Of a stretch of 64,000 bases of DNA, positions 31,153-53,013 are shown in pieces (the first letter of the stretch is position 1; every line of letters starts with the position of its first letter). The notes below the pieces were generated by a model, which saw nothing but the letters and a program-made list of their open reading frames with translations, was not told where the DNA came from and did no database searches. The position numbers were made by a program, and so were the translations under genes. Origin of the DNA: Cladosporium halotolerans (lineage: Eukaryota); assembly GCF_011745625.1 (NCBI RefSeq), contig NW_027191459.1:620001-684000 (forward strand). Direction: 5' to 3'.

Positions 31153-32667
31153 ATGGGCGAGAATGAATTCCCAGGGCTGTCTGCTTTAGGCCTCTATGCT
31201 TCCGACATCCGCGGCGATGGTATGGCTCTCGCTACCTCCCTCTCCTCCATCTCGCTCTTTCATATATCCCTTCCCTCTCTGTCGTCGCTGCCAGCCGTCC
31301 GTCCATGTCCGTCCCGCCCCTGTTCACTTGCACGCTAACACCTCCCCTCCGTAGGCAACTGCCTGTTCAACGCCCTCTCCGACCAGATCTACGGCGACCA
31401 AACCTCTCATGCCGCCATCCGTGCACAAGTGATCTGTTACATGCGTGATCATGCCGCCTACTACAAACAATTCATCGACGTGCACCCCGGAGGAGGCACG
31501 CGACGCAACCCGAAACGAAAGAATGCCGGTGCATTCAATAGCCCGGCCGCCATAGCAACGCCGTCCGAGGCCGACATCGACAAGGTGTTCGAGGGCCACC
31601 TCGACGTCATGGCAAAAGGAGGCACGTACGGAGACAACATGGAGATCACGGCGTTCAGCAGTGCGTTTGGCGTCGATGTCAAGATCTACCAGAGAGACTT
31701 TGCGTACATGGTGTCTGGAGCGGGCGAATACAACGATCAGAGCGATCGACCCGTGGCACACATTGCGTATCACATGTGGGAACACTACTCATCGATCCGT
31801 AACTTGGACGGTCCGCACACTGGTCTGCCAAACGTCACACCCAAAGTGCTCAGCCCAGAGGAGGAGCTCAAACAGAAGCAAAAGCTGGCTGCCACACCCT
31901 ACGTACAACCCTGGCAAATTGACGTAGTGTCGAATTGCCTGCCCTTCCTTGCGGACAAGCCCACAATCAAGCGTGCGCTGGAAGCATCGAAAGGCAACAT
32001 CGACGCCGCCGTCTCGAATCTGATGGACGCCGAAGAGAACGGCAGCGGTTCGTCAGCACAAGAAAGCTCAAGCGTCGAACGCGATCAAGACAGCGACGAC
32101 GACGCCAATACCGGCCCAAATAAGAAGCAAGACCGCCGCATTAGCCGTGCCGCCAAAAAGAACAGCACCACCAAATCCCGTTCAGCCGAAACACGGCATG
32201 CCCTCTCGCAACTCGAAACCGCCGACGGCTCGCAAGATTCCTTCGCCAGCTCCAACGGCGACGACAGCGAAGCCTCCGCGTTCCCCGACTCGTCCCAACA
32301 GAGTACCACATCCATCACATCAACAGCCACCACGCAATCAAGACCGCCCATACGCCTGAAACTGCACCCGCCCAAACCGCCTCCCGACTACGACCCGCAT
32401 CAGTCGAAGTCCAGCAGCAACAAAACCTCGCAATCACAACCCGGCCCGCGCATCTCCGCCCGAGATAAAAAGGACATCAAAAAGCAGGCTCAGAAGGCCG
32501 CGCGGAAAGAACGCCAGCAGGCCGCCGCTACGTCGAAGACGGGCAGCGACAAAGCCGGCACGCCTGATCCTGAGGCTGCTGCCACCGCGGCCGCGGGCAT
32601 GGCGCTGCGGAAGCAAGGGTTGACGCAGACTCCGCCGGTCGACACGCTGCGGACGCTGTACATATGA
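31153..32667 (+). CDS. OTU-domain deubiquitinase with CUE/UBA-like segment
   Basis: Exons 31153-31219 and 31355-32667. Cys-box IRGDGNCLFNALSDQ, GTYGDNMEI, His-box AYHMWEHYSSIR, then IKRALEASKGNIDAAVSNL. Confidence 0.9.
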
Positions 32668-33461: not shown

Positions 33462-34528
33462 CTACTTCAGCTCCGGCGCAACCTGCACACTAACCCCTCC
33501 ATCCTCCATCCCAAAATACGCCGCCACGGGCTTCTGCCCGCCCTTCATGCCCGCCGCCTGCGTCTGGTCCCCATTCATGCCGTAAAACAGCCCCACCTCC
33601 AACACGCCCGTGATGCGCTTGATCCGCTCCGCGAGCGCCGACACCTCCCAGACACCGCCCTTGCCAGACCCGTCCGCGCCCTCCGCCACATCCTCCGGCG
33701 TCAGCAGCTTCGCGAACGGCGCGTCGATGATGTAGAAGCTCTGGTCCGTCTGGATCGGGCCCGCTTTCGCCAGCGTGTGCTCGCGGATCTTGGGGCCGTT
33801 GGATCCCAAGAGCTCCAGCTCGCGCAGCACGCTGACGTGGCCGATGGGCGCGACCTCGATCGGGATGCTGGGCCACTGGGTCAGCAGGCGGCGCTGCTGC
33901 TTGCGGTAGTCGGCGATGCAGATGAAGCGCTTGCTGCGCGTCGCGACGAGCTTCTCCTGGAACAGGCAGGCGCCGCCGCCCTTGATGCAGTTGAGCTCGG
34001 CGTCGACCTCGTCGGCGCCGTCGAAGCAGACGTCGAGCATGGCGTCGCCGGGTAGGGAGTCGAAGTTGATGGGGACGAGCCCGGCCTCCTCGATGACCTT
34101 GCGGGAGTTCCAGCCGGTCGGCACGAACCAGTTCATGTGGTTTTGCGGGGGCGGGTTGGTGGAGAGGTGGTGCTTGATGGCCTCGACGCCGTAGACGATC
34201 GTGCTGCCGCTGCCGATGCCGACGAAGTTGTAGCTGCTTTTGAAGTGGTCCTGGACGGCGCGGAAGGCGGCTTTGCGCTTGGCGGACTCGATTGCGTCGA
34301 GGGGTTTGGCGGGCGGGGGGATGGAGTCGGGAGTGGCCATGGTGGAGAGGAGTCTTGTGAGGAGTTGGGGGGTTTGGAGGGGTGTCGTGGGGAGTCTCGA
34401 GGCTCGGAGGGTGCGGGTGGTGAGTGTTGGGATGCGGCAGGCTGGAAGTGTGTATTAGCAGGTGAGATTAGAGGGTGGAGGAGGGTTTTATGTGCTGGCG
34501 GAATGCGCCGTGACTTACAGACGAGCAT
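33462..34528 (-). CDS. RKI1: Ribose-5-phosphate isomerase A; core ORF 34340-33462 plus a predicted long isoform starting at 34528
   Basis: GIGSGST, FDGADEVD, IKGGGACLFQEK, PIEV, GVLEVGLF. Upstream exon 34528-34519 and intron 34518-34442 extend the frame by 37 codons (see findings). Confidence 0.95.
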
Positions 34529-34907
34529 GTGCGGGATGTATCAAGGCGGAGTCAGCAGGTCGTGCAGGCCAGTGGAGATGTTTTGCTCGCAGCAAGCTGC
34601 CGTCATAGCACCGCCGCCGTCTTCGGGCTGCTCCCAGCTGCCAATGGAGGAAGCCGACTTTGCCCATACCGTCTCCACTCTCGCGTCTCGCGGCCTCTTT
34701 ACCCCGCCACCGTCTCACACGCGCCACAGTCGCGGGGCTGCTGTGGCTGCGAGCTGCGGCGTTTGCCCATGACGAACGTCGGCCGCCAGCCGGACGCGAC
34801 ACAGACACACCAGCACGTGAAACCGGACATCCTCCCCGTCTATCTCACGACCTCACCACTCCTTCGGAGACCCTTCGGCTCAGACACCTGTGCATATCAA
34901 GTCCACC

Positions 34908-36668
34908 ATGGCGCCCAAACGGACAGCCACACCGCCACCCCTCCACGACCTGCCCACCGCCAAAGAGAAGAAGTACGATCGCCAACTGCGCTTGTGGGGA
35001 GCCAGTGGACAGCAGGCTTTGGAAGAAACGCACATCCTTCTCATCGACAATGGATCAGGCGTGACTGGTACTGAGGCGCTGAAGAATCTGGTCTTGCCCG
35101 GGATCGGCCAATTCTCCATCCTGGATCCGGCTGTTGTGACGGAGGCCGACTTGGGCGTCAACTTCTTCCTGGAAGACGAGAGTCTGGGCAAGTTTCGGGC
35201 AGAGGAGACGGTGCGACTGTTGGTGGAGCTGAATCCGGATGTAAAGGGCACTGCTGTCAAAGAGGTAAGTAGACTGATGACTCTGAAGAGACGCTCTGCT
35301 AAAATGTCTGGACAGCCTCTAGAAACATTCCTTGCCAAAGACGGCGTTTTCACACCATATACCCTTGTGCTAGTCGCTGCCCCAATCGAGCCGACCAATC
35401 TCGCACAAATTCAAAAACACACCGCCGCCCTCAATATCCCCCTTTTCTACCTTCACTCGGTAGGATACTACGCCCACTTCTCGATCCAATTACCTCCCGC
35501 CTTCCCGATCGTCGACACACATCCTGATGCGACTGCCCTCGACGACCTGAGAGTACTCAAGCCATGGCCAGAGCTGATCAAGTTCTCGCAAGAGAAAACA
35601 AATGGCATACAGTCAATGAGCGCACACGAGAAGGGTCACATACCTTACGTCTGCCTGCTGTTACATTACGTCGACAAGTGGATGGCGGAGAATGACGGAA
35701 AGCTACCAGAAGCATACAAGGACAAGACGGCTGTCAGAAACATGATTCGCGCAGAAGGAGGAGACGAGGAGAACTTCGAAGAGGCGTATGGCGCTGTCTT
35801 AAAATCGCTAAACCCACCAAAACCATCATCGTCAGTCCGCGAGATTCTGACCGCACCCGAAACTCAACAACTGTCTCCCAACGCGGCCTCCTTCTGGTTC
35901 ATCGCAAGAGCGGTACAAGAGTTTTACAACAAGCACGGCGTTCTGCCATTGCCCGGAGGCTTGCCAGACATGAAGGCGCATTCCAACGATTACATCAGTC
36001 TACAGAAGATCTACAAAGAGAAGGCTCGTCAGGACTTCGCGGAAGTAACATCTACCGTTCAACAGCTAGAGCAGACTGCCGGACACTCCAAACCCATCAT
36101 CGACCCCAAGGAAATCGAAAACTTCTGCAAGGGCGCCGCGCACATTCATCTCGTCCGCGGCAGGCCTTTGCAGATCGCCCAGCCGGGCGCAGACGTCAAG
36201 TTTAACGACCGCGCGAAGGCTTTGGCGAACGAGCTCACGAACCCAGAAGGCTTGATGGGGCTGTACATCGCCTTCCTCGCGTTCGACGACTTTGTCGCAA
36301 CTCACTCGCCACCCACCACACAAGCCGACGGCACGTCATCGCTCATCGCCCCCGGCGAGCCTGGCGCAGACCACGAAGCAGACGCGGCGAAACTCACCGG
36401 CATCGCGCACAAGATCGTCGACAACCTGATCACCGAAGCCGGGACAAGGATCGAGGACCCAGAATACTCCGAGCTGAAGGAAGAGATCGAGCGACTTTGC
36501 ACTGAGATCACAAGAGCGGGCGGCAAGGAGCTGCACAACATCGCTTCTCTGGCGGGCGGTATGATCGCGCAGGAGATCATCAAGGTCTTGACGGCGCAGT
36601 ATATTCCCGTGCACAATTGCTGCTTGTTCGATGGGATTGCGAGCAGGAGCAGTGTGCTTAGGATCTAG
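34908..36668 (+). CDS. ULA1: NEDD8-activating enzyme E1 regulatory subunit (APPBP1/NAE1)
   Basis: KYDRQLRLWGASGQQALE, EALKNLVLPGIG, DLGVNFFL, ELNPDV, IVDTHPD, HIPY, ENFEEA, LPDMKA, ELHNIASLAGGMIAQEIIK...QYIP. 51-nt intron at 35265-35315. Confidence 0.95.
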   Translation: MAPKRTATPPPLHDLPTAKEKKYDRQLRLWGASGQQALEETHILLIDNGSGVTGTEALKNLVLPGIGQFSILDPAVVTEADLGVNFFLEDESLGKFRAEETVRLLVELNPDVKGTAVKEVSRLMTLKRRSAKMSGQPLETFLAKDGVFTPYTLVLVAAPIEPTNLAQIQKHTAALNIPLFYLHSVGYYAHFSIQLPPAFPIVDTHPDATALDDLRVLKPWPELIKFSQEKTNGIQSMSAHEKGHIPYVCLLLHYVDKWMAENDGKLPEAYKDKTAVRNMIRAEGGDEENFEEAYGAVLKSLNPPKPSSSVREILTAPETQQLSPNAASFWFIARAVQEFYNKHGVLPLPGGLPDMKAHSNDYISLQKIYKEKARQDFAEVTSTVQQLEQTAGHSKPIIDPKEIENFCKGAAHIHLVRGRPLQIAQPGADVKFNDRAKALANELTNPEGLMGLYIAFLAFDDFVATHSPPTTQADGTSSLIAPGEPGADHEADAAKLTGIAHKIVDNLITEAGTRIEDPEYSELKEEIERLCTEITRAGGKELHNIASLAGGMIAQEIIKVLTAQYIPVHNCCLFDGIASRSSVLRI

Positions 36669-42330: not shown

Positions 42331-43143
<813 letters not shown>

Positions 43144-51174: not shown

Positions 51175-53013
51175 TTAATGGCCGTGGCCATGGCCGTGGC
51201 CATGGCCATGGCCGTTCTCGACAGCCGAATCCTCCGCAGGAGCCCGCAGCTGCTGAGAAGGCGTCCTGTGCAGGAACGAGTTCTCCACTTCCACGGGGCC
51301 AACGTGCTTCCGCGGAATGAACGGCAGCTGCAGGATGCCGACCACCGCGGCGCCCGCGATGGTGAACCAGGCGGCGCCGGACCCGCCGTAGCTGTACACG
51401 ATACCGACCAGAGGTGGCGAGACGGTCCTCGCCAGACAGCAGCCGGACATGGCGAGGCCGTTGACTTTGCCGAGGACCTGGGGCGAGGGCGTGGCGTCTT
51501 TGAGCAGGATGAGAGCCGCGGGATAGATGATGATGCCGACGAAGCTCTGCATGATGAGCGAGACGTAAATGAGCGCGGAAGTCATGTTCTGCGGGCCGGC
51601 GCTGATGAACGGCAGCATTAGGTAGGGGATCGGGAAGAGGACCACCATGGAGATGAAGGACTTCCAGATGCCGACCTTCTCGATGAAGATGGGGAAGATG
51701 ATGCCTTGGATTAGGAGGCCGATGGCGCCGTTGACGGCGAGGTAGACACCGACGTCGTGGACTGTCATGCCAAGGCCGCCGAACAGATCGAGGTGCTGCA
51801 CAGCTGCTTTAGGCTCGTCGAGGATCCAAGTGGGAAGCAAGCTGAGGTAGGCCATGGAGTGGAAGGACACGATCACCAGGGCGATTGTGATCATGATGAT
51901 AGTGTAGTTGAAGGCCTTGCCGGTGTACTCGGCAGTAGGACCAGCACGGCTTGCGCCACGGCGAGGCTCCGGCCGGCTCTGAGCGACATCGCGGCGAATT
52001 TTATTGGCCTCCTCAGGAGCAAAGCGGATGGAGTGCACGGTGGCGAAGGAAGATTTCCTGATGTCGAAGTACTGGCCGACAGATCCAGGGAGACCTTCCT
52101 CGATGAACGAAGGCCTGGGTGCGCGGCTAGCCTGGGAGCGGCGGCGCATAGATCCACCAATGCTGGCGCGAGGAGCGAGGAGAGAAGAGGTTTCGTCAAA
52201 GACGCTGGCGGCATCGTCCACGGCTCCGTCGTCGGCGACAAGCTCCTTAGGGTTGGTCTCCTCGAGGAAGAAGATTCCCTGGATGATGGCCAGAACGATG
52301 ACAATAACAGCAACAAGATTTGGCAGCAGGTAAGGGTAGGTGGCCCAGAAGCTGTCGGGAGAGAATAATCCAGGGTAGAAGCGAGCAGGCTGAGCGAGGA
52401 AGCCGCCCATGGCAGATCCAATGATTCCTCCCAGGGTCCAGACGAAAGGCTGCACAGCATACGCCTTGGCTGTGAGGAGTGTCAGCAACGCCTCGTGAAC
52501 TGTCAATCTCGGCGGTGGAACTCACGCTCGTGCTCCGGTTTCTTGACCATCTCCGCCACCATAGTCTGCATGACGGCAACGTTACCGTTCAAAGCTCCTC
52601 CAACGAAACGCGCCAACAGTGCAACCCAGTACTTCTTGGCCAGACCGAAAATCAAACTAGAAATAGCAACGCCTCCAAGCCCGATCAGGACAACAGGTTT
52701 TCGGCCATAGCGATCCGAGAGTGCGCCCCAACCCATGGCAGTGATAGCTTCCGCAACAGCGTAGGCGGAGACGAGGAGACCAGCGTAGAAAGACGCATCT
52801 GTCTCATCGCCATCGTGCAGGTCCTTGACCATGGCATATGTATATGCCAGGATGGAGTTAAACGCGATGGGCTCGGAAAAGCGACATATCGCTGAGTGGC
52901 AGTCAGTATTCGCCGTCGGCTGCAGTTTGCTGAGACGTTGCAGGTGGTAACTCACCGAGAATGGTGAGTTGGCGGACGGGGAACGCCTCCGGGTCGTCTT
53001 TGAGGGAGATCAT
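51175..53013 (-). CDS. Major facilitator superfamily transporter (ZIFL/TOM-like DHA-type) with (GH)6 tail
   Basis: Three exons. FPVRQLTILAICRFSEPIAFNSI, motif A WGALSDRYGRKPV, GGALNGNVAV, YPYLLPNL, LGKVNG, ARTVSP. Confidence 0.92.

Follow-up and report, generated by a model that had tools for sequence, protein, structure and literature searches.

A conserved presequence-type stretch, probably mitochondrial, upstream of the ribose-5-phosphate isomerase gene of Cladosporium halotolerans, with a candidate mini-exon start

Introduction

The closest described counterparts of the locus considered here, the gene for ribose-5-phosphate isomerase (RpiA) on a 64,000-nucleotide (nt) stretch of Cladosporium halotolerans DNA (assembly GCF_011745625.1, contig NW_027191459.1, forward-strand positions 620,001 to 684,000; "the window"), are fungal genes in which an upstream start gives an enzyme a targeting sequence. 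Wallace et al. (2020, PMC7049704) describe a weak AUG followed by a targeting sequence and a strong AUG as a common arrangement in Cryptococcus and a predicted one in Neurospora. The genes treated there and the RpiA locus share a weak upstream AUG and a strong AUG at the conserved enzyme start, with 30-110 basic, acid-free residues in between, and in some of the published cases alternative transcription starts reinforce the dual starts. The examples are mainly aminoacyl-tRNA synthetases; the RpiA locus differs from them in that its upstream AUG would lie in a separate 10-nt exon, so that splicing would also be required. The word "ribose" is absent from the text of that paper and from the one supplementary file searched.

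Two further precedents come closer in one respect each. Fungal 6-phosphogluconate dehydrogenase has a cryptic peroxisomal targeting signal type 2 (PTS2) in its 5' leader, reached by non-AUG initiation (Kremp et al. 2020, PMC7214817). As would be the case for RpiA, a fungal pentose-phosphate enzyme there owes a second location to a signal hidden in the annotated 5' leader; its signal, a PTS2 opened by a non-AUG codon, leads to the peroxisome, whereas the RpiA extension contains no PTS2 pattern and would begin at an AUG. In yeast, cryptic mitochondrial isoforms arise from N-terminal extensions (Monteuuis et al. 2019, PMC6582344). An extension upstream of the annotated AUG likewise gives a mitochondrial signal to a supposedly cytosolic protein, but the yeast extensions begin at non-AUG codons; a term search of the main text of that paper found neither RKI1 nor "ribose" nor "pentose".

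For RpiA itself, the literature searched, which included few subscription journals, yielded no report of a mitochondrial fungal enzyme and none on the localisation of the long RpiA gene models described below. A diatom paper names the enzyme only in a legend (PMC2173943), and a Neurospora crassa sugar-model paper mentions rpi-1 only for its low expression (PMC13158570).

Here we propose, with moderate confidence, that RpiA possesses a conserved presequence of mitochondrial type, opened in C. halotolerans by the AUG of a spliced mini-exon, and that the gene yields two products. The parts of this proposal differ in strength. Comparison of related loci indicates that the extension is a real, conserved stretch of presequence type; it is probably mitochondrial; and the mini-exon, as a model for this strain, is plausible though unproven.

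The RpiA locus and its proposed upstream exon

The product of the core open reading frame (ORF; Table 1) matches Pfam family PF06026 (Rib_5-P_isom_A) over residues 72-256 (E = 1.2e-42; 145.9 bits against a cut-off of 26). Its closest protein match, also of 292 amino acids (aa), is 99% identical, the best named match is a Cladosporium fusiforme protein of 294 aa (88% identity), and the identities of RpiA orthologues to the core span 60-99%.

A preliminary description of this DNA, made from the letters alone, had placed a 10-nt exon, a 77-nt intron and a 101-nt open stretch ahead of the core ATG, and these coordinates, together with the in-frame join to ATG 34340, match the minus strand exactly. 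The joined reading adds 37 residues with precisely the five Arg and the lack of Asp and Glu that had been counted, and the TATA-like CATAAAA reported from the intron is there. The cleavage-type motif that had been pointed out (R-L-L/S) also stands up, in that R-L-L-S-T, which we take to be a processing motif of the R-3 type, directly precedes the core Met and a similar Arg motif is enriched across extensions (see below). None of this could be read from the ORF list, as the same description had said: the list holds only the 292-aa RpiA ORF and an unspliced ORF of 131 aa. The exon-2 stretch, which is in frame with the core ATG, is basic, has no acidic residues and abounds in Ser, Thr, Leu and Pro.

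Introns of filamentous fungi are about 50-100 nt long and have a branch site 10-30 nt before a terminal YAG. The proposed intron conforms in its 5' site (GTAAGT), its CTAAT 13 nt before the end, its final CAG and its length of 77 nt. The start codons on either side of the extension differ in context, ATG 34528 being weak (C at -3 and at +4) and ATG 34340 strong (A at -3, G at +4). The same difference runs through the relatives, in which a pyrimidine occupies -3 in nine of nine upstream ATGs and A occupies it in nine of nine core ATGs. The layout of weak AUG and strong AUG is present, though in this genome splicing is needed to bring the two into one frame.

Two other ORFs touch this region. 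Left unspliced, ATG 34528 opens a Pro/Ser-rich frame of 131 aa (34133-34528, minus strand), which differs from that of RpiA and overlaps the RpiA start; the C-rich composition most likely accounts for this ORF, which would be a rival to the core ATG on long transcripts left unspliced. Farther out, ATG 34606 (minus strand) opens an upstream ORF of 21 codons that closes at the TGA at 34543-34541. It shares the phase of the mini-exon ATG and is relevant only to transcripts that start further upstream.

Table 1. Features of the RpiA locus, in window coordinates
Feature	Position	Strand	Remarks
RpiA core coding sequence	33462..34340	minus	292 aa and stop; begins at strong-context ATG 34340 (CACC ATG G)
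Proposed exon-2 part of extension	34341..34441	minus	101 nt: 33 codons and 2 nt of a split codon; without stop
Proposed intron	34442..34518	minus	77 nt, phase 1; GTAAGT 34518-34513, CAG 34444-34442
CTAAT, two copies in intron	34471-34467 and 34458-34454	minus	second copy 13 nt before intron end
CTG at the place of the relatives' ATG in ATGCTAAY	34459..34461	minus	from alignment with clade loci
TATA-like CATAAAA	34486..34492	minus	within intron; not conserved in aligned relatives
Proposed mini-exon	34519..34528	minus	10 nt, carries ATG 34528-34526; C at -3, C at +4
In-phase stop TGA	34543-34541	minus	four codons upstream of ATG 34528
TGACTC	34549..34554	minus	21-26 nt upstream of ATG 34528

Conservation of the extension as a coding stretch

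Loci of relatives were found by tblastn among metagenome contigs. Thirteen of the 16 include the upstream region, the others being L009, L010 and L016; these three, and L002, L007 and L008, which duplicate L001 and L006, stand outside the counts. L013, with an open basic frame and no in-frame ATG, is part of the frame test and stands outside the motif test. In the tblastn alignments, the matches extend to query residues 2-20 of the exon-2 stretch.

The reading frame of the extension stands apart from the two others read from the same nucleotides. Across 11 loci it encodes 69 Arg or Lys and 2 Asp or Glu among 514 residues, with no stops, while one alternative frame gives 19 acidic and 36 basic residues with 6 stops and the other 31 and 33 with 20 stops (Fisher p = 2.6e-7 for acidic and 2.6e-5 for basic residues). 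When each of the 8 lineages is represented by a single locus, acidic residues make up 2/356 in the extension frame versus 37/712 in the others (p = 3.7e-5), and the extension frame has the highest net charge of the three in seven of the eight. In the exon-2 stretch of this genome, the other two frames hold 2 and 3 acidic residues. Gap runs in the Cladosporium-clade alignment have lengths that are multiples of three in 15/15 cases in the extension, as compared with 9/26 in the intron and 11/16 upstream. In-frame upstream ATGs occur at 9 of the 11 loci examined and, judged from their sequences, all nine of the nine relatives with an extension appear to use an AUG start. Distant Dothideomycetes (L011, L012, L014 and L015) have uninterrupted extensions, each with its own ATG. 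Taken over these relatives, the comparisons support the view that the 101-nt stretch behaves as coding sequence.

No poly(A) was found on the L015 contig, which was not classed as a transcript. It carries a TATAAAA (125-131 of the locus) within the extension-coding stretch, 61-67 nt before its core ATG; taken with the TATA-like word in the intron of this genome, it raises the possibility that an internal promoter drives the short form in more than one lineage.

A sceptical explanation is that a C-rich, G-poor leader or promoter simply happens to read as open and acid-free and is translated in no species. C makes up 52% and G 7% of the 150 nt before the core ATG, all three frames there are open (for 38, 42 and 66 codons), the unspliced ATG 34528 opens its 131-aa ORF, and most gene callers start at the core Met. 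Because the region is C-rich and G-poor and every frame is open, an open acid-free frame in a single sequence is weak evidence, and the open frame as such was discarded as evidence. Against this explanation stand the absence of these properties from the other two frames, the preservation of frame by 15/15 gap runs, the in-frame upstream ATGs at 9/11 loci, the enrichment of the Arg motif and the presence of long N-termini across classes. We regard it as strongly disfavoured and give it very little credence.

Presequence character and targeting signals

The bias in charge extends well beyond the clade. In 41 extensions from Dothideomycetes and Sordariomycetes, 352 of 2612 residues (13.5%) are Arg or Lys and 20 (0.8%) are Asp or Glu. 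The 292 residues of the core enzyme, by comparison, include 30 Arg or Lys and 34 Asp or Glu (10.3% vs 11.6%). With five Arg and no acidic residue in 37, the C. halotolerans extension has the charge of a matrix presequence, and the bias is specific to its frame.

Close to the core Met, extensions also share a motif of the processing-site kind. R-x-[FLIYVM]-[SATHCNF] lies no more than 16 residues from that Met in 18/26 extensions, where shuffles predict 4.6, and in 13/21 when each lineage counts once, where 3.8 are expected; 0/20000 simulations reach either count, the motif having been chosen post hoc, after viewing the sequences, so that the counts serve as a lead and not as a clean test. Left out of the counts are P0096 (acidic N-terminus, no core Met found), P0108 (a near-duplicate of P0080) and P0110 (extra length at the C-terminus).

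Signals for other destinations were also considered. A PTS2 follows the pattern [RK][LVIQ]xx[LVIHQ][LSGAK]x[HQ][LAF] near the N-terminus, and a peroxisomal targeting signal type 1 (PTS1) is an SKL-like C-terminus. The PTS2 pattern, strict or loose, occurs in 0/41 extensions, none of the 41 has a hydrophobic run resembling a signal peptide (the longest being at most 7 residues), and the enzyme of this genome ends in APELK, which is not a PTS1.

It could still be that the extension is coding and conserved for another purpose, as a regulatory or degradation tail, a signal for some other compartment or a disordered linker. Its amphipathicity, which does not rise above shuffles (see below), and its many prolines would suit such a role, as would the N-termini of P0010, P0080 and P0096, which are Pro-rich or contain acidic residues. 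Such a role is harder to reconcile with 41 extensions that are 13.5% basic and 0.8% acidic and hold no PTS2, PTS1 or signal-peptide-like run, with the enrichment of the Arg motif beside the second Met, and with a two-AUG layout that is the one described for fungal mitochondrial/cytosolic pairs (PMC7049704). We consider it improbable.

Long RpiA N-termini beyond Cladosporium

Among the best 120 protein matches to the core, 19 are at least 315 aa long, and 18 of these have extra residues at the N-terminus. When near-full-length representatives of clusters at 50% identity are taken instead, 30/66 have at least 30 extra N-terminal residues, mostly basic. The long models include that of N. crassa OR74A ("ribose 5-phosphate isomerase A, variant, partial", 364 aa) and that of Fusarium graminearum PH-1 (FGSG_02480, 388 aa). 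Others come from F. oxysporum, Dactylonectria, Trichoderma, Colletotrichum, Pyricularia grisea, Podospora and Copromyces, and also from Zymoseptoria brevis, Baudoinia and Recurvomyces. Long N-termini are conserved within the Nectriaceae and across classes, and long and short RpiA models coexist among close relatives.

The long Pezizomycotina models resemble the reading proposed for C. halotolerans in that their extensions are basic, nearly acid-free and end at a Met aligned with the start of the short models. They differ in that their extensions, of 35-113 residues, cannot be aligned with the C. halotolerans one outside the clade, and they are gene predictions only; the Cladosporium models, unlike them, begin at the core Met. 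The preliminary description had treated RpiA as cytosolic in fungi. That premise now looks yeast-centred, given the long basic N-termini of gene models in N. crassa, F. graminearum, Pyricularia, Podospora and Zymoseptoria.

Splice signals and the branch-site ATG

Alignment of this genome with loci L001-L008 leaves three islands of identity in surroundings that are scrambled: the 5' splice site, TGCTAAY and a YAG that keeps the codon phase. The 5' site reads GTAAGT in this genome, L003 and L005, GTATGT in L004 and GTAAGC in L001/2, and in L006-8 a GTATGT stands near the aligned position. Candidate introns of the clade measure 62-107 nt. In relatives, words of the form TGAGTCA, TTAGTCA or TGATTCA stand at the position that aligns with the TGACTC of this genome; all of them, presumably similar to Gcn4/AP-1-type sites, lie 20-35 nt ahead of the conserved 5' site.

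In the clade relatives TGCTAAY is preceded by an A, and the resulting ATG, 19 or 22 nt before exon 2, shares the frame of the extension. This branch-site ATG (ATGCTAAY) is found in six sequences, namely L001/2, L003, L004, L005, L006-8 and, by its N-terminus, the public model P0004, which begins there. The Leu codon CTA of ATG-CTA-AYA is invariant in these six diverged sequences, which suggests an additional constraint on it as a branch site. In this genome a CTG replaces the ATG and, with 20 nt between it and exon 2, the segment is out of frame. Since both the branch-site ATG and its frame are lost, the mini-exon ATG would be the sole AUG able to open the extension here. If the intron is spliced from any transcript that bears exon 1, ATG 34528 necessarily comes into frame with RpiA.

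For two expectations of the preliminary description the outcome was divided. The splice signals of its mini-exon model are kept in the Cladosporium clade, but most relatives start at the branch-site ATG instead. The similar extensions that it looked for in orthologues exist, being conserved in the clade and accompanied by long basic N-termini elsewhere, but the relatives start theirs differently. As most relatives do not need a mini-exon, the mini-exon ATG could be a coincidence here, the prior odds of a phase match being about one in three. In-phase exon-1 ATGs do occur in L003-L005, 22 nt before the aligned 5' site.

How often chance would produce such an arrangement was gauged with a rule that demands a consensus 5' site, CTRAY, YAG, an in-phase ATG and an open frame up to the core ATG. 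The rule is satisfied upstream of 2/28 other ORFs of at least 200 aa in the window and in 68/2000 dinucleotide shuffles of the 349 nt upstream of exon 2 (3.4%). The mini-exon pattern is uncommon by chance, at about 3-7%, yet possible. The two other candidates in the window lie before the ORF at 42529 (plus strand; intron of 96 nt, 34 added codons) and before that at 52410 (minus strand; intron of 56 nt, 122 added codons), and each may be a real upstream exon belonging to a multi-exon gene.

The same signals invite a wider and more tentative idea, namely that Pezizomycotina RpiA as a whole has a conserved mitochondrial isoform, serving matrix metabolism of ribose 5-phosphate and ribulose 5-phosphate or a second function, and that the splicing of a small intron sets localisation with opposite polarity in sister lineages. 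In relatives that start at ATGCTAAY, retention of the intron would give the mitochondrial form and splicing would remove it; in this genome, splicing of the mini-exon would create it. We consider this possible, and rather doubtful in its full extent.

Weighing the two-product proposal

In the reading that we prefer, the 101 nt upstream of the core ATG would be the body of a conserved, translated matrix-targeting presequence, and the likely processing site would adjoin the second Met, with Arg at -3. The order of weak AUG, presequence and strong AUG would allow a single gene to serve two compartments. In the Cladosporium clade a short intron would sit at the start of the extension; in this genome, with the ancestral in-frame branch-site ATG gone (CTG) and its segment out of frame, the mini-exon AUG would take over. 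On long spliced transcripts, initiation at the weak mini-exon AUG would produce a precursor that is imported into mitochondria and cut beside the second Met, and leaky scanning past the weak AUG would provide some of the short form. Transcripts that begin inside or after the intron would give only the 292-aa cytosolic enzyme and would probably predominate. For this strain, we infer from the sequence the splicing of the intron, the transcription and use of ATG 34528, entry into mitochondria and cleavage.

A number of observations weigh against this reading. The region is C-rich and has all three frames open in this genome, and most public models, that of C. fusiforme (294 aa) among them, start at the core Met. 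Loci L001/2 and L006-8 have no in-phase exon-1 ATG, and their extensions begin at the branch-site ATG. The TGA(C/G/T)TCA-like words ahead of the 5' site, if they belong to a promoter, sit oddly close to the proposed first exon and would make it more likely that transcription begins beyond exon 1. Third codon positions are not over-represented among the substitutions between relatives, and non-synonymous changes outnumber synonymous ones; between the exon-2 stretch and L003-L005, 13-15 of 30 aligned codons differ non-synonymously. The maximum hydrophobic moment of the extension (0.73 in an 11-residue window at 100 degrees, by a crude home-made measure) is not exceptional relative to shuffles (p = 0.12), and the relatives give p = 0.06-0.80. 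Presequences are usually constrained in composition and at few positions. With no third-position excess and with amphipathicity not above shuffles, constraint on the extension seems to fall on its composition and a few positions.

Contigs add to the points on that side. Four sequencing runs (X1, X2, X20 and X21), none on record as RNA, were compared as contigs, which cannot show transcript starts or the absence of rare forms, and among these contigs neither the 34519/34441 junction nor exon 1 was seen. X1 covers every bin and looks like DNA. In X20 and X21, which are 99-100% alike to the window, the RpiA body and the neighbouring gene are covered and the stretch between them is not (no cover in 34420-34785 and 34420-34846), a pattern that makes these two runs appear RNA-like; their RpiA contigs end within the extension, at 34404 and 34405. 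An X2 contig (record 13, 33697-34468, 95-99% alike) is unspliced at the 3' site and reaches 27 letters into the intron, where a bridging record needs 31; its end at 34468 lies 18 nt downstream of CATAAAA. Together, the unspliced X2 contig and the ends of the X20 and X21 contigs fit transcripts that start inside or after the intron and code only for the short enzyme. A separate oddity in X21 is a 2324-letter contig (record 23) that shares with the RpiA leader only the 30 letters of 34376-34405 and continues in unlike sequence; it could reflect a branch in the graph, a repeat copy at another genomic place or a chimeric contig.

The main rival is the idea that the extension is a recent relic here: coding in relatives, with the long form lost in this genome, which would make only the 292-aa enzyme from transcripts begun farther downstream and would carry its mini-exon ATG by coincidence beside an intron of the 5' leader. 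Two differences from the relatives, both disabling, lie within the 20 nt between branch site and exon 2; the intron exists without an in-phase exon-1 ATG in L001/2 and L006-8; the X2 contig is unspliced at the 3' site; and a phase match has a prior of about one in three, the whole pattern appearing in 3.4% of shuffles. Against a relic, the 33 codons of the stretch keep five Arg, no acidic residue, no frameshift and R-x-L-S-T despite strong divergence from L003-L005. An in-phase exon-1 ATG before the aligned 5' site is also present in L003-L005, and splicing of any exon-1 transcript puts ATG 34528 in frame with RpiA. We judge the loss of the long form unlikely, while taking it more seriously than the other explanations of its kind.

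The unspliced X2 contig would also suit a start at a near-cognate codon on unspliced transcripts begun inside the intron, for example at the in-frame AUC of R-I-P-T-L, with the mini-exon unused. That contig extends to 34468, the extension frame is open from 34454, and fungal non-AUG starts that add targeting signals are documented (PMC7214817, PMC6582344). The context of the AUC is poor (C at -3), however, and nine of nine relatives with an extension appear to use AUG, and we hold little expectation that such a start is used here.

Neighbouring features

Other features of the surroundings bear less closely on the two-product proposal. A ThiF-family gene lies 379 nt upstream of RpiA on the opposite strand. 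At its start (34812-35000), an X20 contig (record 21) carries 271 non-matching letters before 34812, which could be a distant 5' exon or a sign of a chimeric contig. Downstream of RpiA, on the plus strand, a 412-aa ORF at 31429-32667 has a long low-complexity tail rich in Ser, Thr and Lys. A scan of the region for bacterial promoters and terminators returned nothing, a result that is irrelevant to a fungus.

Implications

Because alternative starts for dual targeting are well known, no new mechanism is established here. The finding is nonetheless more than an annotation slip, and it belongs to a known kind of dual-targeting layout. On the side of annotation, a functional N-terminus reached through a mini-exon or a weak upstream AUG may be missing from short RpiA models, and probably also from those of further genes whose leaders are C-rich.

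Yeast RKI1 is described as essential for reasons not fully explained by its pathway (PMC11817168), and a second location of the enzyme would be of interest for that reason. Mitochondrial pentose-phosphate metabolism is speculation at this point. If the proposal is true, a large group of moulds, plant pathogens and model species among them, would share a conserved organellar isoform of a core pentose-phosphate enzyme that textbooks assign to the fungal cytosol. What RpiA does in mitochondria would then become a concrete question, approachable in Neurospora or Fusarium, where long models already exist.

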